From Escherichia coli (lineage in GTDB: Bacteria > Pseudomonadota > Gammaproteobacteria > Enterobacterales > Enterobacteriaceae): a stretch of DNA of 64,000 bases. How positions within the stretch are numbered: the first letter of the stretch is position 1; every line of letters starts with the position of its first letter. The notes beneath the pieces were generated by a model, which saw only the letters and a list, made by a program, of their open reading frames with translations, made no database searches and had not been told where the DNA came from. Shown piece by piece: positions 3,820 to 63,393 of this stretch. The stretch lies in the NCBI RefSeq assembly GCF_044324875.1, contig NZ_CP172185.1; one strand, written 5' to 3'. The translations under genes were made by a program, and so were the position numbers.

Positions 3820-4554
3820 TTATGCTGCGACAACAATCCCCTTTTCGGCAAATGTAGAGCGTAGTCGGCGGGCGAACGCCAGTGCGTGCTCGCCATCGCC
3901 ATGCAGGCAGACCGTTTGCGCCGTGACCGTTGCCCATTCGCCGGTGATGCTTTTGACTCTGCCGTGTTGCACCATCTCCAACGTTTGCGCCAGCGCCTGT
4001 TCTTCGTTTTCAATCAACGCGCCTGGCTGGCTTCGCGGCACCAGCGAACCGTCTGCCTGATAACCGCGATCGGCAAACACTTCCTCGCGCGTTGTCAGGC
4101 CATATTGCTTGCCTGCACGAATCAGCTCGCTTCCTGCCAGCCCGACGAGAATCAATACCGGATCGCAAGCGTATACCGCTCTGGCGATGGCGTCTGCCAG
4201 TTGTGCCTCTTTCGCCGCCTGGTTGTATAACATGCCGTGCGGTTTGACATGACACATTACGCCGCCTTGCGCACGGGTAATCGCTGCCAGCGCGCCAATT
4301 TGATACAGCGTCTGGGCGTAAACGGTTTCTGGCGGCAGCTGCATGGCGCTGCGACCAAAATTTTCCCTGTCGGGAAAACTCGGGTGAGCGCCAATCGCGA
4401 CACCATTTTTTATTGCTTCACGCACGCAAGCCTGCATGGTTTGCGCATTGCCTGCATGAAATCCACAGGCAATATTGGCAGAGGAAACCAGCGTTAATAG
4501 CTCTGCGTCGCTGGCGCAGCCTTCGCCCAGATCGGCGTTCAGATCAATTTTCAT
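3820..4554 (-). CDS. pxpA: 5-oxoprolinase subunit A (LamB/YcsF family)
   Basis: 244-aa ORF, LamB/YcsF-like; first in an overlapping three-gene set with the two genes upstream. Confidence 0.85.
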
Positions 4555-10610: not shown

Positions 10611-10694
10611 TACTGCTCCTGAACGGTTTACAGGAGTAAGTGTAGACGGCAGTATTGAAAAAACGAAACGAATAAATGAGATCGGTAAAGAAAT

Positions 10695-11102
10695 TCAATA
10701 ACTCATAATAAATTTCATGGTGGCGATAAATAGTTTCTTTTCTTCATCACTCATGGTAGAAGCGTTTAACATGTTGCCATAAAATTTACTGATGATATTT
10801 TTTAATTGCAGCAAATGCAAAGGAGAAAAATAGTCACTCCCGATGAGATTACTCAATACCAGCAATAATTCTCCATTATATAAATAACCTACCATAAGAT
10901 TAATCTCTATCATCTCAATTGCTTTTTGTACAGCAAGCGCTGGTAAGATATTCTGACGAAGCATTTTGGCAATATCATTTTCATCCAGTTCATCCGGTGT
11001 TTTATCCAATAAAGAGTTATACCAGTTTATTAAACCACTTTTGAAAGCGAATGAATCATATTGCAGGTGATAAATCTGTTTTAGGGTTTCTTTATTTTTC
11101 AT
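10695..11102 (-). CDS. Hypothetical protein (135 aa) in an AT-rich islet
   Basis: ORF in a very AT-rich stretch; 12 bp downstream of the 94-aa ORF on the same strand; no family recognised. Confidence 0.45.
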   Translation of the reverse strand: MKNKETLKQIYHLQYDSFAFKSGLINWYNSLLDKTPDELDENDIAKMLRQNILPALAVQKAIEMIEINLMVGYLYNGELLLVLSNLIGSDYFSPLHLLQLKNIISKFYGNMLNASTMSDEEKKLFIATMKFIMSY

Positions 11103-11114
11103 TTTATAATGTCT

Positions 11115-11399
11115 TTATTTGCTATGATTTTTCTGATTTAATTCTATATCATTTAAAGCATTTTCAAGCCAATCATCCATGTTCTTAATTTTAGCCCGCT
11201 CATACAAATCATGCACAACATCTTCATAACGCCGTCCATCATTGACCATACAATTAGCTGTATGAGGCAGAACATGTATAAAATCAGACAATATAAAACA
11301 AGCCTTTGCATTTCCAGAGTTAGCTGCAGTTCTGATATCAATCAAGCCTCTGGCAATTAATTTAAGAATAACACTAACATCTTGCATTTTAATTTCCAT
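11115..11399 (-). CDS. Hypothetical protein (94 aa) in an AT-rich islet
   Basis: ORF in the AT-rich islet, co-oriented with its neighbours; no family recognised. Confidence 0.4.
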   Translation of the reverse strand: MEIKMQDVSVILKLIARGLIDIRTAANSGNAKACFILSDFIHVLPHTANCMVNDGRRYEDVVHDLYERAKIKNMDDWLENALNDIELNQKNHSK

Positions 11400-11481
11400 A
11401 TCATCCAGTTAAATTTTAGTCGTAAATCGTCTATCTAAAAAAGATGAAATTAACATTTATAAATTTATTACAATATAAAAA

Positions 11482-11835
11482 TCAAAAATATACATCATCA
11501 GCTTCTACTGAAAACTCCATGGCTCCTAAGGCACCTAAATCAATACTAAATATGGTATCACTTTCCTTAGCACTCCCAACATAGATAAAATAGCCTAAAT
11601 CCCCATCCTGACCTATCAAAAAATAGTCAGGCTCCACTCGTTGAATATCATATGTTTCATTTCTTTCAATAAGATCAGAATAGTTATACAGATATAATAT
11701 TTCATGCTTCTTATTAGTTATTTCATAGGCCTCACTATCTTTAATTTCTTCTATTAAGAAACGTTTATACACTGGAGGAAATTTGATTGACATGTCAAAT
11801 TCAATTTTATTTATATATTCTATGATTTTATTCAT
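11482..11835 (-). CDS. SUKH/SMI1-KNR4-like protein (putative orphan immunity protein, 117 aa)
   Basis: Motifs FPPVYKRFL and DYFLIGQDGDLGYFIYVGS resemble the SMI1/KNR4 (SUKH) immunity family; AT-rich; no toxin gene upstream. Confidence 0.5.
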   Translation of the reverse strand: MNKIIEYINKIEFDMSIKFPPVYKRFLIEEIKDSEAYEITNKKHEILYLYNYSDLIERNETYDIQRVEPDYFLIGQDGDLGYFIYVGSAKESDTIFSIDLGALGAMEFSVEADDVYF

Positions 11836-12069
11836 GTTAAGAATACCTGAGCGGTTAATTATCGGTTATTGTGATGAATATATATTCGCTTTTAATTTTC
11901 AATAACTCATCACGGAAATACATATTGCTTTGTAGGCAAGCGCTAATAATACTTTATGAACCTGACTTCCGCCAGATATTCAACCTAAATATTCATGACG
12001 CAGTAATGTTTTAGAAAGCCACTAACTGCCCAGATAGTGCATCATCTACTACATTGGCGATTATACTCT

Positions 12070-12258
12070 AAATAATTCAAGTTGCAGGAAGGCGACAAGC
12101 GAGTGACAAATTCGTCAGGAACGAATTTGCCCAGTCGCAGGCTGACCTTCGGTGAGAGACATGGATGTCTCTCATTAATCCCCAGGAGCTTACATAAGTA
12201 AGTGACTGGGGTGAACGAACGCAGTCGCAGCACATGCAACTTGAAGTATGACGAGTAT
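12070..12258. repeat. ERIC (enterobacterial repetitive intergenic consensus) element
   Basis: Contains the ERIC core cccaggagcttacataagtaagtgactggggtga and the flanking gcatgcaacttgaagtatgacgagtat. Confidence 0.55.
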
Positions 12259-12302
12259 ATAAAAAACCCCTGATTCCAGTTCCTTGTGCTGCGATCCTAA
12301 CC

Positions 12303-12337
12303 AAAAAAAAACCGCCAGCGTTTCCGCTGGCGGTTTT
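12303..12337 (-). terminator. Rho-independent terminator downstream of ybfA
   Basis: Stem ccgccagcg/cgctggcgg with a 4-nt loop; 9-nt T-run on the minus strand. Confidence 0.7.
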
Positions 12338-28897: not shown

Positions 28898-30562
28898 TTA
28901 CTCGCCTACTTTCGCCCAGGTATCACGCAGCCCAACGGTGCGGTTAAATACCGGTTTTTCCGCCGTAGAATGGCGGCTATCGAGGCAGAAATAACCTTCA
29001 CGCTCAAACTGGAATGCTTTACCCGCTACCGCGTCTTTCAGAGACGGTTCAGCAAAGCCCTGTTTGATCACCAGCGATTCCGGGTTAATCACCGACAGGA
29101 AATCATCCGCAGCACCAGGGTTCGGCACGCTGAAAAGACGGTCGTACAGGCGGATTTCAACCGGCAGCGCATGTGCCGCGCTCACCCAGTGAATAACGCC
29201 TTTCACTTTACGACCATCTGCCGGATCCTTGCTTAAGGTGTCGGCGTCATAAGTACAGAAGATGGTGGTGATATTGCCTTCGGCATCTTTCTCCACGCGT
29301 TCAGCCTTAATGACGTAAGCATTACGCAGACGCACTTCTTTACCCAGCACCAGACGTTTGTACTGCTTGTTAGCTTCTTCGCGGAAATCGGCGCGGTCGA
29401 TCCAAATCTCACCGCTAAACGGCACCTGACGGCTACCCATTTCCGGTTTGTTCGGATGGTTCGGCATGGTGACCATTTCGCCTTCGCCCTGATAGTTTTC
29501 GATAACCAGTTTCACCGGATCGATAACCGCCATTGCGCGCGGCGCATTTTCGTTGAGATCTTCACGGATGCAGGATTCCAGCGACGCCATCTCAATGGTG
29601 TTGTCCTGCTTGGTCACGCCGATGCGTTTGCAGAACTCACGAATAGAAGCCGCAGTGTAACCACGACGACGCAGACCGGAAATGGTCGGCATACGCGGGT
29701 CATCCCAGCCTTCAACGTGCTTGTCGGTCACCAGCAGGTTCAGCTTACGCTTGGACATCACGGTGTATTCCAGATTCAGGCGCGAGAATTCGTACTGGCG
29801 CGGGTGAACAGGAATGGTGATGTTGTCCAGTACCCAGTCGTACAGACGACGGTTGTCCTGGAACTCAAGCGTACACAGAGAGTGCGTAATACCTTCCAGC
29901 GCATCGCTGATGCAATGGGTGAAGTCGTACATCGGGTAGATGCACCACTTGTTGCCAGTCTGGTGGTGTTCAGCAAATTTAATGCGGTACAGCACCGGAT
30001 CGCGCATTACGATAAATGGCGACGCCATGTCGATTTTCGCACGCAGGCAGGCTTTACCTTCTTCAAAACCACCGGTACGCATTTTTTCGAACAGCGCCAG
30101 GTTCTCTTCAACGCTGCGGTCGCGGTACGGGCTGTTTTTACCCGGCTGCGTCAGGGTGCCGCGGTATTCGCGGATCTGTTCCGGTGTCAGTTCATCAACG
30201 TACGCCAGGCCTTTATTGATCAGTTCGATCGCATAGGCGTGGAGCTGATCAAAATAATCGGAGGAGTAACGGACGTTACCAGACCAGTGAAAACCTAACC
30301 ACTCAACGTCGTTTTTGATCGACTCAACATACTCGATATCTTCTTTTACCGGGTTAGTGTCGTCGAAACGCAGGTTGCACTGGCCTTTATAGTCCTGGGC
30401 GATCCCGAAGTTCAGGCAGATAGATTTCGCATGGCCAATATGCAGATAGCCATTCGGCTCCGGCGGGAAACGGGTGTGTACTGTGGTGTGCTTACCACTG
30501 GCCAGATCTTCATCGATGATCTGACGAATAAAGTTAGTCGGGCGGGCTTCTGCCTCACTCAT
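28898..30562 (-). CDS. glnS: Glutaminyl-tRNA synthetase
   Basis: 554 aa; class I aaRS HIGH motif (HIGH) and KMSKS-like motif (VMSKR). Confidence 0.95.
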
Positions 30563-35060: not shown

Positions 35061-36281
35061 ATGACACCAGGCGGACAAGCTCAGATAGGTAATGTTGATC
35101 TCGTAAAACAGCTTAACAGCGCGGCGGTTTATCGCCTGATTGACCAGTATGGGCCAATCTCGCGGATTCAGATTGCCGAGCAAAGCCAGCTTGCCCCCGC
35201 CAGCGTAACCAAAATTACGCGTCAGCTTATCGAACGCGGGCTGATCAAAGAAGTTGATCAGCAGGCCTCCACCGGGGGCCGCCGCGCTATCTCTATCGTC
35301 ACCGAAACCCGCAATTTCCACGCAATCGGTGTACGGCTTGGTCGTCACGACGCCACCATTACTCTGTTCGATCTCAGTAGCAAAGTGCTGGCAGAAGAAC
35401 ATTACCCGCTGCCGGAACGTACCCAGCAGACGCTGGAACATGCCCTGCTGAATGCCATTGCTCAGTTTATTGATAGCTACCAGCGCAAGCTGCGCGAGCT
35501 GATTGCTATTTCCGTGATCCTGCCAGGGCTTGTTGACCCGGACAGCGGCAAAATTCATTACATGCCGCATATTCAGGTAGAAAACTGGGGGCTGGTAGAA
35601 GCACTGGAAGAGCGTTTTAAAGTGACCTGTTTTGTCGGCCACGATATCCGTAGTCTGGCGCTGGCAGAGCACTACTTCGGTGCAAGTCAGGATTGCGAAG
35701 ACTCCATTTTAGTGCGTGTCCATCGCGGGACCGGGGCAGGGATTATCTCTAACGGGCGCATTTTTATTGGCCGCAACGGTAACGTCGGTGAAATTGGCCA
35801 TATTCAGGTCGAACCGCTGGGTGAACGCTGCCACTGCGGCAACTTTGGCTGCCTGGAAACTATTGCTGCCAACGCTGCTATTGAACAACGGGTGTTGAAT
35901 CTGTTAAAGCAGGGCTACCAGAGCCGCGTGCCGCTGGACGACTGCACCATAAAAACTATCTGCAAAGCTGCGAACAAAGGCGATAGCCTGGCGTCGGAAG
36001 TGATTGAGTATGTGGGTCGTCATCTGGGCAAAACCATCGCCATTGCGATCAACTTATTTAATCCGCAAAAAATTGTTATTGCCGGTGAAATCACCGAAGC
36101 CGATAAAGTGCTGCTCCCTGCTATTGAAAGCTGCATTAATACCCAGGCGCTGAAGGCGTTTCGTACTAATCTGCCGGTGGTACGTTCTGAGCTGGATCAC
36201 CGCTCGGCAATCGGCGCTTTTGCGCTGGTAAAACGCGCCATGCTCAACGGTATTTTGCTCCAGCATTTGCTGGAAAATTAA
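35061..36281 (+). CDS. nagC: NagC transcriptional regulator (ROK family)
   Basis: 406 aa; N-terminal HTH plus ROK sugar-kinase-like domain with CxCGxxGC motif. Confidence 0.9.
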   Translation: MTPGGQAQIGNVDLVKQLNSAAVYRLIDQYGPISRIQIAEQSQLAPASVTKITRQLIERGLIKEVDQQASTGGRRAISIVTETRNFHAIGVRLGRHDATITLFDLSSKVLAEEHYPLPERTQQTLEHALLNAIAQFIDSYQRKLRELIAISVILPGLVDPDSGKIHYMPHIQVENWGLVEALEERFKVTCFVGHDIRSLALAEHYFGASQDCEDSILVRVHRGTGAGIISNGRIFIGRNGNVGEIGHIQVEPLGERCHCGNFGCLETIAANAAIEQRVLNLLKQGYQSRVPLDDCTIKTICKAANKGDSLASEVIEYVGRHLGKTIAIAINLFNPQKIVIAGEITEADKVLLPAIESCINTQALKAFRTNLPVVRSELDHRSAIGAFALVKRAMLNGILLQHLLEN

Positions 36282-36328: not shown

Positions 36329-37082
36329 ATGACCATTAAAAATGTAATTTGCGATATCGACGGCGTGCTGATGCACGATAACGTCGCCGTACCGGGTGCA
36401 GCGGAATTTTTGCACGGGATTATGGATAAAGGCCTGCCGCTGGTGTTGCTGACCAACTATCCTTCGCAGACCGGGCAAGATCTGGCGAACCGCTTTGCCA
36501 CTGCCGGTGTCGATGTACCTGACAGCGTGTTTTATACCTCTGCGATGGCGACCGCCGATTTCCTGCGTCGCCAGGAAGGCAAGAAAGCGTATGTGGTGGG
36601 CGAAGGCGCACTGATTCATGAACTGTACAAAGCCGGTTTCACTATTACCGATGTGAACCCTGATTTTGTGATTGTTGGCGAAACGCGTTCCTACAAACTG
36701 GGACATGATGCATAAAGCAGCCTATTTCGTCGCTAACGGTGCACGTTTTATCGCCACCAACCCGGACACCCACGGGCGCGGTTTTTATCCGGCGTGTGGT
36801 GCGCTGTGTGCGGGGATCGAAAAAATCTCCGGACGTAAACCGTTCTATGTTGGTAAGCCGAGTCCGTGGATCATCCGCGCAGCATTAAACAAAATGCAGG
36901 CGCATTCGGAAGAAACGGTGATTGTCGGCGATAACCTGCGTACCGATATTCTGGCGGGCTTCCAGGCCGGTCTGGAGACGATTCTGGTACTCTCCGGCGT
37001 TTCGTCGCTCGACGATATCGACAGTATGCCATTCCGCCCCAGCTGGATTTACCCATCGGTCGCCGAAATTGACGTTATCTGA
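36329..37082 (+). pseudogene. nagD: HAD-family UMP phosphatase NagD/UmpH, interrupted by a +1 frameshift
   Basis: Two overlapping ORFs (36329..36715 and 36672..37082) cover the N- and C-terminal halves of one HAD protein; the frame changes in an AAA run at about 36695-36697. Confidence 0.7.
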
Positions 37083-37133
37083 ATACCACCCACGTCTGCG
37101 GACGTGGTTGGCTCTGATGACAAGCGCCAAACT

Positions 37134-38442
<1,309 letters not shown>

Positions 38443-41235: not shown

Positions 41236-41312
41236 GGCTACGTAGCTCAGTTGGTTAGAGCACATCACTCATAATGATGGGGTCACAGGTTCGAATCCCG
41301 TCGTAGCCACCA
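41236..41312 (+). tRNA. metT: tRNA-Met (elongator, anticodon CAU)
   Basis: 77-nt cloverleaf ggctacgtagctcag...ccacca with anticodon loop ctCATaa. Confidence 0.9.
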
Positions 41313-41321
41313 TCTTTTTTT

Positions 41322-41406
41322 GCGGGAGTGGCGAAATTGGTAGACGCACCAGATTTAGGTTCTGGCACCGCAAGGTGTGCGAGTTCAAGTCTCGCCTCCC
41401 GCACCA
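41322..41406 (+). tRNA. leuW: tRNA-Leu (anticodon UAG)
   Basis: 85-nt class II tRNA gcgggagtggcgaaattggtagac... with long variable arm; anticodon TAG. Confidence 0.9.
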
Positions 41407-41429
41407 TTCACCAGAAAGCGTTGTACGGA

Positions 41430-41504
41430 TGGGGTATCGCCAAGCGGTAAGGCACCGGTTTTTGATACCGGCATTCCCTGGTTCGAATCCAGGTACCCCA
41501 GCCA
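41430..41504 (+). tRNA. glnU: tRNA-Gln (anticodon UUG)
   Basis: 75-nt tggggtatcgccaagcggtaaggcaccggtttTTGata... Confidence 0.9.
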
Positions 41505-41519
41505 TCGAAGAAACAATCT

Positions 41520-41596
41520 GGCTACGTAGCTCAGTTGGTTAGAGCACATCACTCATAATGATGGGGTCACAGGTTCGAATCCCGTCGTAGCCACCA
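41520..41596 (+). tRNA. metU: tRNA-Met (elongator, anticodon CAU), second copy
   Basis: Identical in sequence to the first tRNA-Met. Confidence 0.9.
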
Positions 41597-41644
41597 AATT
41601 CTGAATGTGTCGAATGCGTTCGGCAAATTCACAAACCAATTTGT

Positions 41645-41719
41645 TGGGGTATCGCCAAGCGGTAAGGCACCGGATTCTGATTCCGGCATTCCGAGGTTCG
41701 AATCCTCGTACCCCAGCCA
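41645..41719 (+). tRNA. glnV: tRNA-Gln (anticodon CUG)
   Basis: 75-nt tggggtatcgccaagcggtaaggcaccggattCTGatt... Confidence 0.9.
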
Positions 41720-48883: not shown

Positions 48884-50761
48884 TTACGGTTCAGGGATAC
48901 AAGCCACATCGCCATATTGGGGATGCCGAATAATTGCCTGCGGATCAAGCGAGCGCGTCCTGTCCATTTGGATTAACCCGTTCTTCGCCATAACAAATAT
49001 CTTTCTACCATCCGCTGAAAAACGAAGATGATTAACGTAGCTGGCAGGATAAACGCCAATAATCTGCCCGGCATTAATATTGAGCAGAATGACATAACCT
49101 TGCAGGCCATATGACACCAACGCTAAATACTGACCGTCCGGGCTAATACCCTCAACGGAATAAACGCTCCTGCTACACCATTGCGTCATAATGCTGGCTT
49201 GCTGATCCCCAACTCTTATACGTGAAATCCCCTGGCTGTCGGCAAAAATTACATCCCCGTTTTCAGGTCGAAAACGCATCGCCGATATCGTTCCACGCGC
49301 ATCACTAGCCGGATAGCTTTCTTTTTGATGCGTGATGGTATTGATGCGTACAATGTCACCTCTGACCATACCGGGTATCAACAATGTTTTTTCATCCGGG
49401 GAAAGTGCCATAACCCAGGCGCCTGGTTTACCGCTCGTCCCCGTCCCGTCGTATTTCTCCAGCGGGATATCCGCCACATGCTGATAAGCCACCAGATCAA
49501 TGGCTGACACACTATTACTGGTGCGATTCATCACCCAGGCTTTTGTGCCATCGCGCGAGAGGATAAGGCTGTCAGGATGTGCGCCGGTGGTAATCGACTG
49601 AATAATCTCCCCCGTCGCCACGTTAATGACCGATAACGCATTCGCTTCAAATGAAGTTGCATAAAGCAACGTTTCATCCGGGCTTAACGCCAGCGATCTG
49701 ACGGCCTGATCTTTACAGCCACCACAATGTTTGAGTGACTTTTCTTTCGCTATGGGCGCTGTAAAGGTATGCAGGATTTTCTTTTGTCCGAGGTCGAAAA
49801 CAACAATGCTGTTGGTGTTTTCAATTGCGGCATACAACGTATTACCATCCCGACTGATCGCCATATCATGGATATCGGCAATCTCAGCGAGCAAATCACC
49901 ACTGGCCTGCTCACGACTTACCGGAGCGGATAATGTTTCCCTGAGGGCGTTGCGCTCCTCCACTAACTGCTGCTTTTTTTGTCGTCGCTCTTGTTCAATC
50001 TCCTGCGGATAAAACTCTTCACGCAGGCTGTGCCTGACCAGTAAAACTGATTCATCAATCTGCTGCTGCACAAGCCAGATAGCCCCGGTAAGAAGAAGAC
50101 TGCCCGCAACAATAATCCCGCCTTCCGTAACAAGCCGGTTTTGCCCAGATAAACGCGCACTCAGCCACCCCAACGCACCACCCGCAATCAGGCCGCCAAT
50201 ATGACAAGCATTATCTATTCCTGTTTGCCGGGCACCATACAACAGTGTCAGCGCCACCATACCCAACAGAGAAAATACTCGCCGCTGGTTTTTATGGTAT
50301 GTGCCCGCACCTGAAGCAAGCTGTGTTGCTATCGCAGCGCCAGCAATTCCCATAATTGCCCCGGATGCCCCAACGCTGATGACTATCTGCTCACTTTCGC
50401 GTAACGCATAACAGGCGCTGATTAGCCCACCAAAGACGCCAGAGAATAGCCAGACAATCAGGAGTCGCCATTTCCCCAGTATCCGTTCCGCCACTGCCCC
50501 CACCACCAGGAGTGCAAACATATTCATCAGCAAATGGGGAAAACTACTGTGCAGAAAGACACTGCTCAATAAGCGCCAGGGTTCACCCGACAACGTGAGA
50601 GAAGCAACGTTAGCACCAAGATGGATGAGTGCGGATTGATCGACGTCTTCATAACTCATCCATTGTGCGAGATAACAAAATATCCCAACACAGAGCGCAA
50701 AAAGGATAAGAGTTATTGCGGGTAATTGAACATTTAACGGCTTAACCGAAGATGCAGACAT
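48884..50761 (-). CDS. Rhomboid-family intramembrane serine protease fused to a C-terminal YVTN/WD40-like beta-propeller (625 aa)
   Basis: N-terminal polytopic region with rhomboid motifs GASGAIMG (Ser) and HIGGLIAG (His); linker rich in E/R/Q; C-terminal repeats SRDGNTLY, SPDETLLYA, SRDGTKAWV, SPDEKTLLI, SPDGQYLAL, SADGRKIFV. Confidence 0.75.
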   Translation of the reverse strand: MSASSVKPLNVQLPAITLILFALCVGIFCYLAQWMSYEDVDQSALIHLGANVASLTLSGEPWRLLSSVFLHSSFPHLLMNMFALLVVGAVAERILGKWRLLIVWLFSGVFGGLISACYALRESEQIVISVGASGAIMGIAGAAIATQLASGAGTYHKNQRRVFSLLGMVALTLLYGARQTGIDNACHIGGLIAGGALGWLSARLSGQNRLVTEGGIIVAGSLLLTGAIWLVQQQIDESVLLVRHSLREEFYPQEIEQERRQKKQQLVEERNALRETLSAPVSREQASGDLLAEIADIHDMAISRDGNTLYAAIENTNSIVVFDLGQKKILHTFTAPIAKEKSLKHCGGCKDQAVRSLALSPDETLLYATSFEANALSVINVATGEIIQSITTGAHPDSLILSRDGTKAWVMNRTSNSVSAIDLVAYQHVADIPLEKYDGTGTSGKPGAWVMALSPDEKTLLIPGMVRGDIVRINTITHQKESYPASDARGTISAMRFRPENGDVIFADSQGISRIRVGDQQASIMTQWCSRSVYSVEGISPDGQYLALVSYGLQGYVILLNINAGQIIGVYPASYVNHLRFSADGRKIFVMAKNGLIQMDRTRSLDPQAIIRHPQYGDVACIPEP

Positions 50762-55569: not shown

Positions 55570-57240
55570 ATGGATAATGCAGAACTCGCCATTGGTATCG
55601 ATCTCGGTACTACCAATAGTTTAATTGCCGTCTGGAAAGACGGTGCCGCGCAATTAATTCCAAATAAGTTCGGTGAATATTTAACACCATCCATAATTAG
55701 CATGGATGAAAATAATCATATTTTAGTCGGAAAACCCGCTGTATCACGGCGCACTTCGCATCCGGATAAAACGGCAGCGTTATTTAAACGTGCAATGGGC
55801 AGTAATACCAACTGGCGGTTAGGCAGCGACACATTTAACGCGCCAGAACTGTCCTCTTTGGTATTACGCTCATTAAAAGAAGATGCCGAAGAATTTCTGC
55901 AACGTCCGATTAAAGATGTGGTGATCTCCGTTCCGGCTTATTTCAGCGATGAACAACGCAAGCATACCCGTTTAGCAGCGGAGTTAGCCGGGTTAAATGC
56001 GGTACGCTTAATTAATGAACCCACAGCAGCTGCGATGGCATATGGCCTGCATACGCAACAAAATACCCGCTCGCTGGTTTTTGATCTCGGTGGCGGCACG
56101 TTTGACGTCACGGTGCTCGAATACGCCACGCCGGTGATTGAAGTTCACGCCTCCGCTGGCGACAACTTTCTTGGCGGCGAAGATTTTACTCATATGCTGG
56201 TGGATGAAGTTTTAAAACGCGCCGCAGTGGCTAAAAACATGCTCAACGAAAGTGAGCTGGCAGCCCTGTACACCAGCGTGGAAGCGGCAAAATGCGGCAA
56301 TCAATTACCGCTGCAAATTAGCTGGCAGTATCAGGAAGAAACGCGTGAGTGCGAATTTTACGAGAACGAACTGGAAGATTTGTGGTTGCCGCTGCTCAAT
56401 CGCTTGCGAGTGCCGATTGAACAGGCGTTGCGCGATGCACGTCTGAAGCCCAGTCAAATCGACAGTCTGGTGCTGGTTGGCGGCGCATCACAAATGCCGC
56501 TGGTGCAGCGAATCGCCGTACGTCTGTTTGGCAAATTACCATATCAAAGTTACGACCCGAGCACCATTGTCGCGCTGGGCGCAGCAATCCAGGCCGCCTG
56601 CCGCTTACGCAGTGAAGATATTGAAGAGGTGATCCTCACTGATATTTGCCCTTACTCGTTGGGTGTTGAAGTTAACCGCCAGGGCGTTTCCGGCATTTTC
56701 TCGCCGATAATTGAACGAAACACCACTGTACCGGTGTCGCGTGTAGAAACTTACTCGACCATGCACCCGGAACAGGATTCAATTACGGTTAACGTCTATC
56801 AAGGAGAAAATCACAAAGTTAAAAATAACATTCTGGTGGAATCCTTTGATGTGCCGTTGAAGAAAACCGGGGCTTATCAGTCGATTGATATTCGCTTTAG
56901 TTATGATATCAACGGGTTGCTTGAAGTTGACGTGCTTCTGGAAGACGGCAGCGTTAAGTCCAGAGTCATTAATCACAGTCCTGTAACATTGAGCGCACAG
57001 CAGATTGAAGAGAGTCGGACGCGGTTATCCGCATTGAAAATTTATCCGCGCGATATGCTCATCAACCGTACCTTTAAAGCCAAACTGGAAGAGTTGTGGG
57101 CGCGGGCGCTGGGTGACGAGCGAGAAGAGATCGGCCGGGTGATCACCGATTTTGATGCGGCGTTGCAGTCAAACGATATGGCCCGCGTCGATGAAGTTCG
57201 GCGACGGGCGAGCGATTATTTGGCTATTGAGATCCCTTAA
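55570..57240 (+). CDS. hscC: Hsp70-family chaperone HscC
   Basis: 556 aa; Hsp70 signatures IDLGTTNS and DLGGGTFD. Confidence 0.9.
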   Translation: MDNAELAIGIDLGTTNSLIAVWKDGAAQLIPNKFGEYLTPSIISMDENNHILVGKPAVSRRTSHPDKTAALFKRAMGSNTNWRLGSDTFNAPELSSLVLRSLKEDAEEFLQRPIKDVVISVPAYFSDEQRKHTRLAAELAGLNAVRLINEPTAAAMAYGLHTQQNTRSLVFDLGGGTFDVTVLEYATPVIEVHASAGDNFLGGEDFTHMLVDEVLKRAAVAKNMLNESELAALYTSVEAAKCGNQLPLQISWQYQEETRECEFYENELEDLWLPLLNRLRVPIEQALRDARLKPSQIDSLVLVGGASQMPLVQRIAVRLFGKLPYQSYDPSTIVALGAAIQAACRLRSEDIEEVILTDICPYSLGVEVNRQGVSGIFSPIIERNTTVPVSRVETYSTMHPEQDSITVNVYQGENHKVKNNILVESFDVPLKKTGAYQSIDIRFSYDINGLLEVDVLLEDGSVKSRVINHSPVTLSAQQIEESRTRLSALKIYPRDMLINRTFKAKLEELWARALGDEREEIGRVITDFDAALQSNDMARVDEVRRRASDYLAIEIP

Positions 57241-57244
57241 ACAC

Positions 57245-57285
57245 GGCTGCCGGATGCGGCATAAACGCTGCATCCGGCATCGGCG
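57245..57285. repeat. REP-like palindrome between convergent hscC and djlC
   Basis: ctgccggatgcggcataaacgctgcatccggcatcgg. Confidence 0.6.
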
Positions 57286-57299
57286 CAAAAAACACTTCC

Positions 57300-58751
57300 T
57301 CAGCTAAACAACATCGCGATTTTTCCGAGAGCATAACCTATCACCAGCACCGTTAAGCTGATTTTGATAATGCTGGTAATGCTCTGTGGTTTTTCATCCT
57401 CATCATTTTTTTCTTCGTGGTTTTCAGGTGTTGGCTCATCGACATCTTCATCCTCCGGCTCGAGTTTCACTTTCGTCAACAGCATCCGGGTGATAATGGC
57501 CTCTAATGGATGAGCATCTCCACCTTCCAGCCTTGTATTAAGACGGGCCAGCATCTCTTGTTTCGGGAACGCTTCCAGCACAACCTGTTCCGCTACCCGA
57601 TACAAATCCAGTAACGGTGAATCTTGTTCTGTCTCGCTACCGACTCTCGATTTCCACCACGCCCATGCTTTGCGCTTGAAGAATAACGACTCAATAAACG
57701 ATTGACCTAACGGCGATAATTTTCCGCTATGTAAAATTTCCGCCCATAACAGCCGCGTCCGGGCGCTCTCACCAGGAACATATTTCAACGGTTGACCTTG
57801 CGCATCAACCATGCTCTGCGCTTCGATAACCATCACTAACAGCGCGAAATAATCCGGGCAATGACGCTTGCTCCACTGCAACAACAAATTATCGGCTTGT
57901 GTAGATGGGTAACTCTCCCGGTATGCGCAGAGATCGGCAAGCAGGCTTTCCCCCTCGCCACAGTACAACCGTTGCGCACACTGGTAATAACGGGCATCTT
58001 CGCTTTCTGGTTCTTCTGCTTGCCACTGTTGGGCAACAGGAATGAGTTCCGCCATACCTCTTTTCACCGAGCTGTACCAGCGCAACAGTTTGCGATGTAA
58101 CTTGACATCATCAGGAATGAACCACGGACCTTCCATTGCCATAAACGCAGTGACATAGTCGGGATGGTAACGGCAACAGCGTTCCAGCGCGAAGTAATAC
58201 TCAACAGTCTGGTTCTGCAACGCGACGGGATATTCCAGAAGGCTAAGGAAATCGAAACAATCACCAGCCTGAATGGCCTCAAGAAAAGCCTCCCTTTCTT
58301 CCTCATCCATTCCTTCGCTGTCATTAAACGAATGCCAGTTCAAACGCTCTGCCAGCAAAGAAGCACAATTTAATGAAAGATATCGCGCTTCTATAGCGAT
58401 TGCACACAGCGGCCAGCGTAATTGATCGACATCCTCCATGTTCCAGGTATTTAATTGCTGAATAAATTTCTGCCAGGCGGAGGGCTGAAAACGATCACTT
58501 TCTGAATCCAGTAATGTCCTGAATGCACGTAGTATTTCATGTTCAGCGGCGGCATCTTTTTCTTCATCATCTGCTTCCTCGACAGGATTTACCGCCAGTC
58601 GCAGCGCCTCTTCATAGGCCTGGCGTAATGCTTTAAACCCCTGCGGATCGGTTTCGGGATGACACAACGGTAAGCGAGCAAGATAAGCCTGGCGGATAAT
58701 GTCTATTTGCGTCGTGCTTTCAATTTCGAGGATTTGCCAACATGTTTTCAT
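57300..58751 (-). CDS. djlC: J-domain co-chaperone of HscC (membrane-anchored at the C-terminus)
   Basis: 483 aa; N-terminal J-like domain with an HPE tripeptide; C-terminal hydrophobic segment; start overlaps the ybeU stop. Confidence 0.8.
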
Positions 58752-59455
58752 AGGTCGCTCACATCCTTAAGCGTTACCGGGCATTCAGGCTGGGCAGTCA
58801 ATGGCTGCCAGGGAAGCGTGGCATAGAAACGATCGCTTCCCGCTGCCAGCTCTTCGAACATCCGACTCCCGGCGCTATCGTATTTGTACAGGGTTAGCGC
58901 CTCGCGTAACGAAGCGTTGTCTTCGCATTGAGAAGATTGCCAGTAGAGACGCCCTAGTGAATAGGCAGAAAAATAGTGCATCCAGCTGTGATAGTAATGG
59001 TGTGCTCGGACATAGATGCGCGATTGCAGCCATAAACTCTCTTCTTCCGTCAGCCACTTGTTGAGCACACCGACCCGTGACAGAAACCCCATTCGAACAT
59101 AATCCCAGGCTTTGATTCCCCCTTCTCCACAGCACATAGCGGTTTGGGCAACGAATTGGGTATAAATCAACCCTCTCTCCGAGCCACCAGCAATTAATGC
59201 TTTCCACTCTTCAGGGGAAGAGCGATGCCATGTCAGATATAAGCCAGCTAAATCATTGGCATGACCATCATCGGTCATCTGATAAATAGTCTGAATTAAA
59301 TCATCACGATTATTTATTCCCCAGGATGATGAGAGATCGAATTCTTTTATCCCGGTATACATTTTTGGCGAGTCATGCGCGGGCTTGCAACCCTGATTAA
59401 GTATTTCCATGGGCGTAGAAAGCGCAAAAAGAAGATATTGTTCTTCCTTATTCAT
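58748..59455 (-). CDS. ybeU: DUF1266-family protein
   Basis: 235 aa; translationally coupled to djlC; paralogous to the ybeR product. Confidence 0.8.
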
Positions 59456-59556
59456 TTGTTAATAATCCCTTAAGTGCATTAACTGACTACTTTTTTATTA
59501 TTGATGAGTATAAACTTGACGCTTTCAAAATAAAAAGAAAATCGAAGTATTCACAC

Positions 59557-60111
59557 ATGAATAAAAAATTAATGTATATATTCGCAATATTTATAGTTGC
59601 AGCAATAACCTGTATTAGTCAACCCAAGAAAACGACGTTGCGTGATAAAGCCATGGTGAATTATGCCTTTGATTATTTAAGCTCACCGGGCAGTCTTCCA
59701 TTCACCACGGCAGCCACGGAGCTTTCCGCGATTCATGGTCACTCAACGTCGCAATATCGCCTTGGAGAATTTTATCTTCATGGTAGCGACGGTAAACCAC
59801 TGGATTATACACAGGCGAGATACTGGTATGAGCAATCAGCGGAACAGGAAAATCCACGCGCGCAAAGTAAACTGGGGTGGATCTACCTCAAAGGTCTGGG
59901 GGTCAAACCCGATACCCGTAAAGCAATTCTCTGGTATAAGGAAGCAGCTGAACAAGGGTATGCTCATGCTCAATATACTTTAGGTTTGATCTACAGAAAC
60001 GGCTCAGGTATTAATGTTAACCATTATGAATCTCAAAAATGGTTAAAACTGGCCGCCAAACAACATTACAAAAATGCGGAAAGATTACTTGCCGGGCTTC
60101 CCGCACATTAA
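59557..60111 (+). CDS. ybeT: Sel1-repeat (TPR-like) protein with signal peptide
   Basis: 184 aa; Sel1 repeats (AQ..LG..Y..G.GV..D...A..WY..AA.QG). Confidence 0.8.
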
Positions 60112-60120
60112 CGTCGACTG

Positions 60121-61548
60121 TCACCCGAACAGATGGAGTATTTTCCCTATCAAACCAGCAAAGATAAAAATATAGAAAATAATTTTGATGACGCCCAGAC
60201 AGCCCGGCCCACCATCGTCAACGGGCATTGGCTGCGGTTGCGGCTCCGGTTCAACAGTTTGCTTCTCGGTAAAATTCGCCGCCTGAATTAATAATCGACG
60301 AATAATTAATGCTTCCAGTGGACAACGATCTTCTGCATCAAGGCGGCTCACAATCGGCATTAATGATTCTTCTGTCGGTTGGCTGGCCTGCACTAATTGT
60401 TTGGCAACTAGATATAATGGCCATAAGGGATGTTCTGTATCACGCGTGAGTGAGATCCGCGGCTTACGTCCTTTGTGCAAAACCATCTCGACCAGAGAAC
60501 GCCCCAGCGCAGAGAGTTTTTCATCACTGAGTATTTCGTATAAATGAAAACGCGTACGAGCGCTGTCACCAGGGACATAAAGTAGCGGTTTTCCCTGATC
60601 GTTAACCAGATCACGCGCTTCAATCATCATCACCACTAATGGGTAATAATCGACCCGATGCTGACGGCACCATTGCAACATTAAAGCATCCGCCTGGGTG
60701 GAGGGATACTCGCGCCAGTAGTCACAAAGTTCTGCCAGCAGGCTTTCGCCTTCTCCACAATAGACGCGTTGCGCGTATTCATAATAACGCGCATCTTCAT
60801 TATCAGGTTCAGCTTCCCGCCACGACCGGGCGTAATCCAGAAGTTCGGGGATTCCCAGGCGGCTTGCGCTATACCAGCGGAGTAAATTTCTGTGCAGTTT
60901 TGCATCATCGGGGATAATCACTGCGCGATGTTGCGCTAAATACAATGTCAGCCATTCTGGATGCGATGACCAAATCCGAGCGAACATTTGGTAAAAATCG
61001 ATGGTGTCATTTTGCACGGCAACGGGCAGATGCAGAATGGTCTGGAAGTTAAAAACATTCCCCTTCGCAATGGCATATAAAAAGGATTCCAGTTCTTCTT
61101 CGTCTATTTCCCCGGTGTTTTCCTCCTGCAACCACCGCAGTCTTTCTGCTAATAACACCACGCACTCGAAGGATAAATGGGCAGTGTTCATGGCGATTGT
61201 GCACAGCGACCAGCGTAATTCATCAATCTCTTCCATCGAGCAATAATTTAATTGCTGAATGAATCGCTGCCAGGCGGAAGGCAGAAAACGTTCGCTATCA
61301 GAGGCGAGTAACGCACGAAAGGCGAGCAGAATTTCATGTTCTGCAACTTCATGTTCTTCTGGTTGCCAAACAGATTTAGCAGGGGACTGCGCAATCCGTA
61401 GCGCATCCTCATACGCCTGACGAAGTTGTTTAAAACCCTGCGGATCTGTTTCTGGATGAAAGGACGGTAACAAGGCCAGATAAGCGCGACGGATAATATC
61501 GACGTCAGTCGTTTGAGGTATATCGAGGATCTGCCAGCAAGTTTTCAT
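60121..61548 (-). CDS. djlB: J-domain protein, paralog of DjlC
   Basis: 475 aa; same architecture as djlC (N-terminal J-like domain with HPE, C-terminal hydrophobic tail). Confidence 0.8.
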
Positions 61549-62252
61549 AGGTCGCTCATATCCTTAAGCGTTTCCGGGCATGTGGGGTAGTCAACCAGTG
61601 GTTGCCAGGGTAAGGTCGCGTAATATGCATCGTCACTGGCAAATAATTGATAAAACATATCATTGCCGGAATCGTCGTATTCTTTACGCGCTAAGAATTC
61701 ACGTAATAACTGAAGATTATCATCTTCGGGAGACTGCCAATATTGCCGACCAAAGGTATAACCGGCAAAGTATTGCTGCCAGTTACTATAATAACGTAGC
61801 GCCCGTAGATGAATGCGCGACTGGATCCATAGACTTTCTTCTTCGCTTAACCAGTTATTAAGTACGCCCATTCGGCTTAAAAAACCCATCCGGACATAAT
61901 CCCAGGCTTTAATTCCTCCCTCACCACAGCATTCGGCGGTGCTGGCGACAAATTGCGCATAAGCCTGACCTTGCTCATTTAATTCAGCAAGATAGTCACG
62001 CCATTCACATGGCGAATAACGAAACCAGCAGTGATAAAACCCTGCCAACCGCGCGGCATGACCGTTATCAATCATTCGGTGAATTGTGCGCAGCAGGTCA
62101 TCACGGTCATCAATTCCCCAGGAGGAAGAAAGGTCAAAAAAGCGTGTACCTAAATACATTTTGGGAGATGAATGCGAAGGTAAACAGCATTCATTGCGTA
62201 TTTCCATCGGAGTGGAAAGTGCAAACAATATTTTTTGCGACTCCATGTCCAT
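61545..62252 (-). CDS. ybeR: DUF1266-family protein, paralog of YbeU
   Basis: ORF 61545..62279; probable start at the internal [13 protein letters not shown]; translationally coupled to djlB. Confidence 0.75.
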
Positions 62253-62409
62253 ATAATTTATCCTTAAATATTCATTCAATGAATATTAACCACGTTGCGA
62301 GGCTCATTTATTTATACTTTTCTGACGCAACATAATACGCATAAAATAAGGCTTACGCAAAAATGGAACACATAAAAATATAATATGTTTTATATGCAAC
62401 CATAAGGAA

Positions 62410-63393
62410 ATGATAATGATTTTTACGTCAAGTTGCTGCGATAATTTATCAATAGATGAGATTATCGAACGTGCTGAAAAAGGCGATTGCGAGGCTCAAT
62501 ATATTATTGGGTTTTATTATAATCGCGATAGCGCAATTGACTCTCCGGACGACGAAAAAGCCTTCTACTGGCTGAAGCTGGCCGCTGAGCAAGGCCATTG
62601 TGAAGCACAATATTCCTTAGGGCGGAAATACTCCGAGGATAAAAGCCGTCATAAAGATAATGAGCAAGCCATCTTTTGGCTGAAAAAAGCTGCCCTACAA
62701 GGCCATACTTTCGCTTCCAACGCCCTTGGCTGGATACTGGATCGTGGAGAAGACCCCAACTATAAAGAAGCGGTTGCCTGGTATCAGATAGCCGCGGAGA
62801 GCGGAATGTCTTATGCGCAAAATAATCTTGGATGGATGTACAGAAATGGCAACGGAGTCGCTCAAGACTATGCGCTGGCATTTTTCTGGTACAAACAAGC
62901 TGCATTACAAGGCCATAGTTACGCACAAGACAATCTGGCCGATCTTTATGAAGACGGAAAAGGCGTTGCTCAAAACAAGACACTCGCCGCATTCTGGTAT
63001 TTGAAAAGCGCACAGCAGGGTAATCGGCATGCCCAGTTTCAAATTGCATGGGATTATAACGCTGGCGAAGGGGTGGACCAGGACTATAAGCAAGCCATGT
63101 ACTGGTATCTGAAGGCTGCCGCTCAGGAAAGCGTCGGCGCTTACGTCAACATCGGTTATATGTATAAACATGGACAAGGCGTTGAGAAAGATTATCAGGC
63201 CGCCTTTGAATGGTTTATGAAAGCCGCTGAATGCAATGACGCCACTGCCTGGTATAACCTGGCCATTATGTATCACTACGGAGAAGGAAGACCTGTCGAT
63301 CTCCGACAGGCTCTCGACCTGTATCGTAAAGTTCAGGCATCCGGTACCAGGGATGTCAGTCAAGAAATCCGTGAGATTGAAGATTTACTGTAA
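62410..63393 (+). CDS. ybeQ: Sel1-repeat protein
   Basis: 327 aa; multiple Sel1 repeats. Confidence 0.8.
   Translation: MIMIFTSSCCDNLSIDEIIERAEKGDCEAQYIIGFYYNRDSAIDSPDDEKAFYWLKLAAEQGHCEAQYSLGRKYSEDKSRHKDNEQAIFWLKKAALQGHTFASNALGWILDRGEDPNYKEAVAWYQIAAESGMSYAQNNLGWMYRNGNGVAQDYALAFFWYKQAALQGHSYAQDNLADLYEDGKGVAQNKTLAAFWYLKSAQQGNRHAQFQIAWDYNAGEGVDQDYKQAMYWYLKAAAQESVGAYVNIGYMYKHGQGVEKDYQAAFEWFMKAAECNDATAWYNLAIMYHYGEGRPVDLRQALDLYRKVQASGTRDVSQEIREIEDLL

Follow-up and report, generated by a model that had tools for sequence, protein, structure and literature searches.

NagD/UmpH of Escherichia coli K-12, a UMP phosphatase of HAD subfamily IIA (PDB 2C4N), is well characterised. Its catalytic residues are Asp9, Asp11, Thr42, Lys176, Asp201 and Asp206, its C2 cap comprises residues 71-175, and a substrate-specificity loop lies at residues 144-149 (PMC5132288). 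The enzyme breaks down excess UMP in pyrimidine overflow, and deletion of umpH in K-12 results in poorer growth after an orotate upshift and in a higher final culture density, with end-product levels that are undisturbed unless surE/umpG is also lost (PMC4470420).

In the window, by which we mean the 64-kb stretch of E. coli DNA that was analysed as a whole, nagD encodes the same 250 residues as the K-12 gene once a single A is removed, and it is found in the same genomic context, nagE / nagBACD / asnB. In contrast to K-12 NagD, the frame is broken at codon 123, which leaves fragments of 128 aa and roughly 124 aa and no intact enzyme. The lesion is of an ordinary and already-known kind, namely a pseudogene of a well-characterised enzyme that is caused by the commonest type of small mutation. 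As in other lineage-specific pseudogenes of E. coli that go back to a small indel or a nonsense mutation, a conserved core gene is affected, by a one-base indel, in a clonal manner and with no further decay. Nothing essential sets it apart from these single-gene pseudogenes; the window allele is absent from complete RefSeq genomes, as detailed below.

Results

A single inserted A splits nagD into two frames

The nagD locus is composed of the following features:

36329..37082, + strand: nagD/umpH pseudogene, 754 nt compared to the normal 753, which closes the nagBACD operon
36695..36697, + strand: AAA run with the one-base insertion (AA in the wild type), codon 123
36329..36715, + strand: ORF of the N-terminal fragment, 128 aa, in which HAD motifs I and II (Asp9, Asp11 and Thr42) are retained along with the N-terminal half of the cap domain
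36713..36715, + strand: premature TAA stop in the shifted frame, as read from the sequence
36708..37082, + strand: C-terminal fragment, encoded in the +1 frame and called by gene finders with Met127 as its start, 124 aa

At positions 36690-36700 the window reads cctacaaactg, and a nucleotide alignment with intact nagD shows that only a single base has been added, turning AA into AAA at 36695-36697, so that the wild-type tcc tac aac tgg has become tcc tac aaa ctg g. Asn123 is changed to Lys, which is followed by LGHDA and a stop. The 0-frame ORF that begins with the ATG at 36329 has 128 codons and the C-terminal end ...GETRSYKLGHDA*, and the frame from 36699 reads WDMMHKAAYFVANG... and proceeds to the normal NagD C-terminus (...AEIDVI*) with its stop at 37082. 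The +1-frame ORF is open over 36672..37082 and includes ...NWDMMHKAAYFVANG; the 0 and +1 frames hence overlap across 36672-36715. The ATG ATG of Met126/Met127 in the +1 frame is located at 36705-36710, directly before the TAA at 36713-36715.

When NagD of strain 18KM2445, the closest complete genome and our gene reference, was used as a tblastn query, the alignment fell into two parts (q1-124 and q123-250) that showed no further gap or stop. Deletion of one A yields a 250-aa protein that is identical to PDB 2C4N at 250/250 residues (E = 1.9e-170), and the RefSeq name of the orthologue is 'ribonucleotide monophosphatase NagD'. The N-terminal product matches Pfam PF13344 (Hydrolase_6; match obtained on an identical product), and the C-terminal fragment, which carries the substrate-specificity loop 144-149, Lys176, Asp201 and Asp206, matches PF00702 and PF13242. 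On one side nagD is adjacent to nagC (35061..36281), and on the other side an IS element and then asnB follow; nagE, nagB, nagA and nagC are all intact in the window.

These results agree well with a preceding sequence-only reading of the same DNA, in which a HAD-family NagD (UmpH) frame was described that breaks in a short A run, with an N-terminal ORF ending in RSYKLGHDA* and the remaining protein in another frame. Its coordinates and peptide strings all match the sequence and the translations, the remainder of the protein is indeed encoded in the +1 frame up to 37082, and the 100% identity of the repaired protein to 2C4N supports the family assignment. The alignment to intact nagD that had been proposed there likewise confirms a single-base insertion in a short A run.

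The frameshift is very probably a genuine and recent mutation

We are highly confident that the nagD frameshift represents a genuine, recent and lineage-specific loss-of-function mutation. NCBI, ENA and Logan together contribute 29 contigs (33 index blocks) on which exactly this 128-aa truncated NagD is on record. Four carrier contigs from widely separated accession series and different assembly pipelines were retrieved, and the assemblies were compared with the window. Contig UDIE01000049 of GCA_900482385.1 is identical to it at 10,951/10,951 positions, AAA allele included, and stops 119 nt inside the same variant of the insertion sequence IS621, as expected for a short-read assembly. The Logan assemblies of SRR32234848 and SRR31121872 are identical over 8,204/8,204 and 5,078/5,078 nt, respectively, and the one of SRR21141798 shows one SNP, at 29161, in 8,361 nt; AAA is present in all three. 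These datasets may partly repeat the sequencing of one strain and not stem from separate isolates, the one SNP being the sole difference seen. Within the window itself, 45 of the 46 reference genes annotated in 18KM2445 are full length without gap or stop and only nagD is split, the additional A being the only uncompensated 1-bp intragenic indel in the nucleotide alignment with that strain. The 64 kb contain only one IS and one pseudogene.

One could argue that a homopolymer sequencing or assembly error has occurred, and that the true genome reads AA and has an intact nagD. The change is a 1-bp length difference within an A run, the window (probably a long-read or hybrid assembly) crosses IS621 and REP repeats at which a short-read assembly broke, and a different singleton nagD +A in strain SC392 (ONT+Illumina) illustrates that isolated indels of uncertain status occur. 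However, four or more datasets that were assembled separately share the identical allele, which is recorded on a total of 29 contigs, and nagD is the only frameshifted gene among the 46 compared in the window. Homopolymer miscalls are, moreover, not common in runs as short as three A. Since independent datasets contain this allele together with identical flanking sequence, we regard such an error as very unlikely. Of the two options put forward in the sequence-only reading, the homopolymer error is consequently not sustained, as AAA recurs in independently generated assemblies, and the genuine pseudogene is corroborated by GCA_900482385.1, SRR21141798, SRR32234848 and SRR31121872 together with the intact neighbouring genes.

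Both halves of NagD have kept the wild-type amino-acid sequence in full (100% identity), and all carriers found are identical or differ very little, which suggests that the mutation arose recently in a single clone.

The allele marks a rarely sequenced clone

The wild-type nagD site is present in 5,423 of the 5,426 complete RefSeq E. coli genomes and the AAA allele in none of them, as judged by megablast with a 41-nt query centred on AAA that is unable to seed a match on a wild-type genome. Likewise, an exact 39-nt pattern across AAA had no match in species-representative genomes and none in JGI metagenome contigs. The nearest complete E. coli genomes, which are phylogroup-D-like strains such as 042, show ~99.1% identity across the nag region and 99.4% beyond it (18KM2445, 042), and the source name on the record of the truncated NagD is simply 'Escherichia coli'. 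Shigella had been weighed as the source on account of the IS and of an identity to E. coli of no more than about 99%, and was dismissed in view of this source name, of the phylogroup-D-like nearest genomes and of the low number of IS copies and pseudogenes, one of each in the 64 kb. The lineage of the window is poorly represented among complete genomes, and the AAA allele marks a rarely sequenced clone. We found neither a literature report of this allele nor a paper that cites the carrier accessions, with the exception of SC392, which has a different lesion.

The neighbouring IS621 copy

The element between nagD and asnB consists of the following features:

about 37161-38440: IS621 copy of the IS110 family, 78 nt past the nagD stop
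37353..38333, + strand: RNA-guided IS621 transposase, 326 aa (NF033542, 255.8 bits)

The insertion point is located after ...TTATCAGGCCT of the REP/BIME between nagD and asnB. Strain HS carries IS621 at the same site and in the same orientation, with nagD intact. Between the window and HS, the nagD-asnB intergenic region, IS621 included, shows 36 differences over 1,676 nt; the two transposases differ by 4 aa. In the 5' non-coding (bridge-RNA) region, the window reads CTTAGGTTTTCAACC and HS reads CTTGGGTTCT-AACC, a difference that includes a 1-nt insertion.

We attach practically no credence to the idea that the frameshift is a by-product of this insertion or was co-selected with it. It is true that the frameshift occurs together with one and the same IS621 variant in both the window and GCA_900482385.1, but the element lies outside the gene, within a REP element and 464 nt away from the additional A (36697 to 37161), and the AAA allele is absent from all of the complete genomes, HS and many more, in which IS621 occupies this site in this orientation. 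IS110-family recombination is not known to give rise to single-base insertions at a distance. The idea from the sequence-only reading that the lesion is noteworthy for its position just upstream of the IS finds no support, given that HS combines IS621 at this place with an intact nagD.

Recoding or a split enzyme is improbable

A further question is whether nagD could still be functional in the carriers, either by +1 ribosomal frameshifting, by transcriptional slippage, or as a split enzyme after reinitiation at the ATG codons at 36705/36708. A +1 shift anywhere within the overlap of 36672-36715 would produce a near-native NagD, the ATG ATG lies 3-8 nt ahead of the premature stop in a geometry that permits termination-reinitiation, and both halves have retained their wild-type residues. 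The latter is, however, equally well explained by a young mutation, and the local sequence, UAC AAA CUG, offers no stop or rare codon after AAA, CUG being a common codon. It matches no known +1 shift-prone motif, and nothing in it resembles the prfB site CUU UGA C; transcriptional slippage would, in turn, require a much longer run than three A. The one SD-like sequence, GGGA at 36700-36703, is weak, and the break bisects the cap domain (residues 71-175). Finally, the two-frame arrangement is present in 0/5,426 complete genomes, and this lack of conservation argues against a selected recoding site. Taken together, we see only a slim chance that nagD is still functional.

The similarity to genes with a prfB-type programmed +1 frameshift is that two overlapping frames are needed for the full protein. 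In contrast to those genes, nagD of the window lacks a conserved shift site, a stop or rare codon that would stimulate the shift and an SD stimulator upstream of it, and the arrangement is not conserved across genomes. A programmed frameshift or recoding site was hence rejected as a classification of the locus, on the grounds of the missing shift motif and of the 0/5,426 genomes with the arrangement. A slipped-strand, phase-variable locus was rejected as well: the tract has 2-3 A, all carriers have AAA, all other genomes have AA, and no other lengths occur.

Predicted consequence for the enzyme

The pseudogene most probably arose by insertion of one A into the AA dinucleotide at codon 123 of nagD/umpH, for which replication slippage or misincorporation would be the simplest route. 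A ribosome would then read Lys-Leu-Gly-His-Asp-Ala and halt at 36713-36715. The predicted 128-aa product would keep the nucleophile Asp9 as well as Asp11 and Thr42, and would be devoid of the second half of the C2 cap, the loop 144-149, Lys176, Asp201 and Asp206. Any C-terminal fragment, if produced, would retain motifs III and IV and the specificity loop and lack the nucleophile.

No single polypeptide contains all four HAD motifs, as the mid-cap break at codon 123 separates Asp9/Asp11/Thr42 from Lys176/Asp201/Asp206. From the roles of these residues, a loss of function is therefore predicted, with an inactive UMP phosphatase in the carriers, and the locus is best described as a pseudogene of the NagD/UmpH family and not as a functional member of it. 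GlcNAc catabolism is expected to be unaffected and no polar effect is anticipated, since no gene of nagBACD lies downstream of nagD, and since nagE, nagB, nagA and nagC are intact. The expected phenotype of carriers is a weaker degradation of UMP in overflow, for which SurE/UmpG would compensate in part, and the loss of nagD is plausibly near-neutral or conditionally advantageous.

Other nagD lesions and a database artefact

Two more nagD lesions were found in other genetic backgrounds. A W124* null allele (TGG to TGA) is present on 63 contigs, for example at 3992-3994 of a contig (L011) of the Logan dataset ERR12450131, and in no complete RefSeq E. coli genome. The environmental isolate SC392 (GCA_902810015.1, contig L007) carries its singleton +A (gcgttcActac) at about 3982, five bases upstream of the position of the additional A of the window; because the assembly is a polished ONT assembly, the status of this lesion is uncertain. 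Together with the +A on 29 contigs, this makes three independent lesions within 12 bp on three genetic backgrounds. Their clustering is due to ascertainment, as only lesions near codons 120-126 give rise to the 124-aa fragment that served as query. One could speculate that loss of nagD/umpH is recurrently selected in some E. coli clones, which we consider unlikely; that the two halves are co-expressed by way of the overlapping stop and start codons and form a split HAD phosphatase is less likely still. If true, recurrent loss would fit the higher culture density that is reached without UMP overflow degradation (PMC4470420).

ENA metagenome scaffolds with the 124-aa C-terminal fragment were discarded, as they contain an N run with duplicated flanks inside a wild-type nagD. 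The N run is found at the same place of nagD in eight unrelated metagenome scaffolds (L002-L006 and L008-L010, about 3870-3990). This is a scaffolding artefact, from which gene callers emit a false 124-aa fragment, and it inflates the apparent number of nagD truncations in protein databases.

Other differences between the window and strain 18KM2445

Downstream of asnB (41236-41719), the window has an array of five tRNA genes in the order Met-Leu-Gln-Met-Gln, and the counterpart in strain 18KM2445 has seven, Met-Leu-Gln-Gln-Met-Gln-Gln. One copy of each Gln tRNA pair has presumably been lost by recombination between the repeated genes. An Rfam scan of the region of 35-42 kb returned tRNAs only.

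A segment of 1.6 kb between ybgA and ybfA (10663-12305) is missing from strain 18KM2445. It contains three small ORFs:

10695..11102, - strand: ORF of 135 aa
11115..11399, - strand: ORF of 94 aa
11482..11835, - strand: ORF of 117 aa

None of these ORFs (10695-11835) has an NCBIfam match. They may represent orphan immunity-type genes; the segment is situated where K-12 carries the rhsC region. Also missing from 18KM2445 are seven ORFs that lie as a block between rihA and ybeL (55570-63393) and that, by their sizes and the gene order of K-12, we take to be hscC-djlC-ybeU-ybeT-djlB-ybeR-ybeQ. This block is a presence/absence polymorphism. Finally, an ORF of 625 aa at 48884-50761 on the - strand, annotated in the reference as a rhomboid-family intramembrane serine protease, shows 94.7% nucleotide identity to 18KM2445 with several small compensated indels, compared to 97-99% for its neighbours.

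Discussion

For genome annotation, our results imply that the locus should be labelled as a nagD/umpH pseudogene and should not be 'corrected' as if it were an error. The AAA allele combined with the adjacent IS621 variant constitutes a handy clonal marker for a rarely sequenced, phylogroup-D-like E. coli lineage. As predicted natural umpH-null strains, the carriers could further be used to test the cost and benefit of pyrimidine overflow outside K-12.
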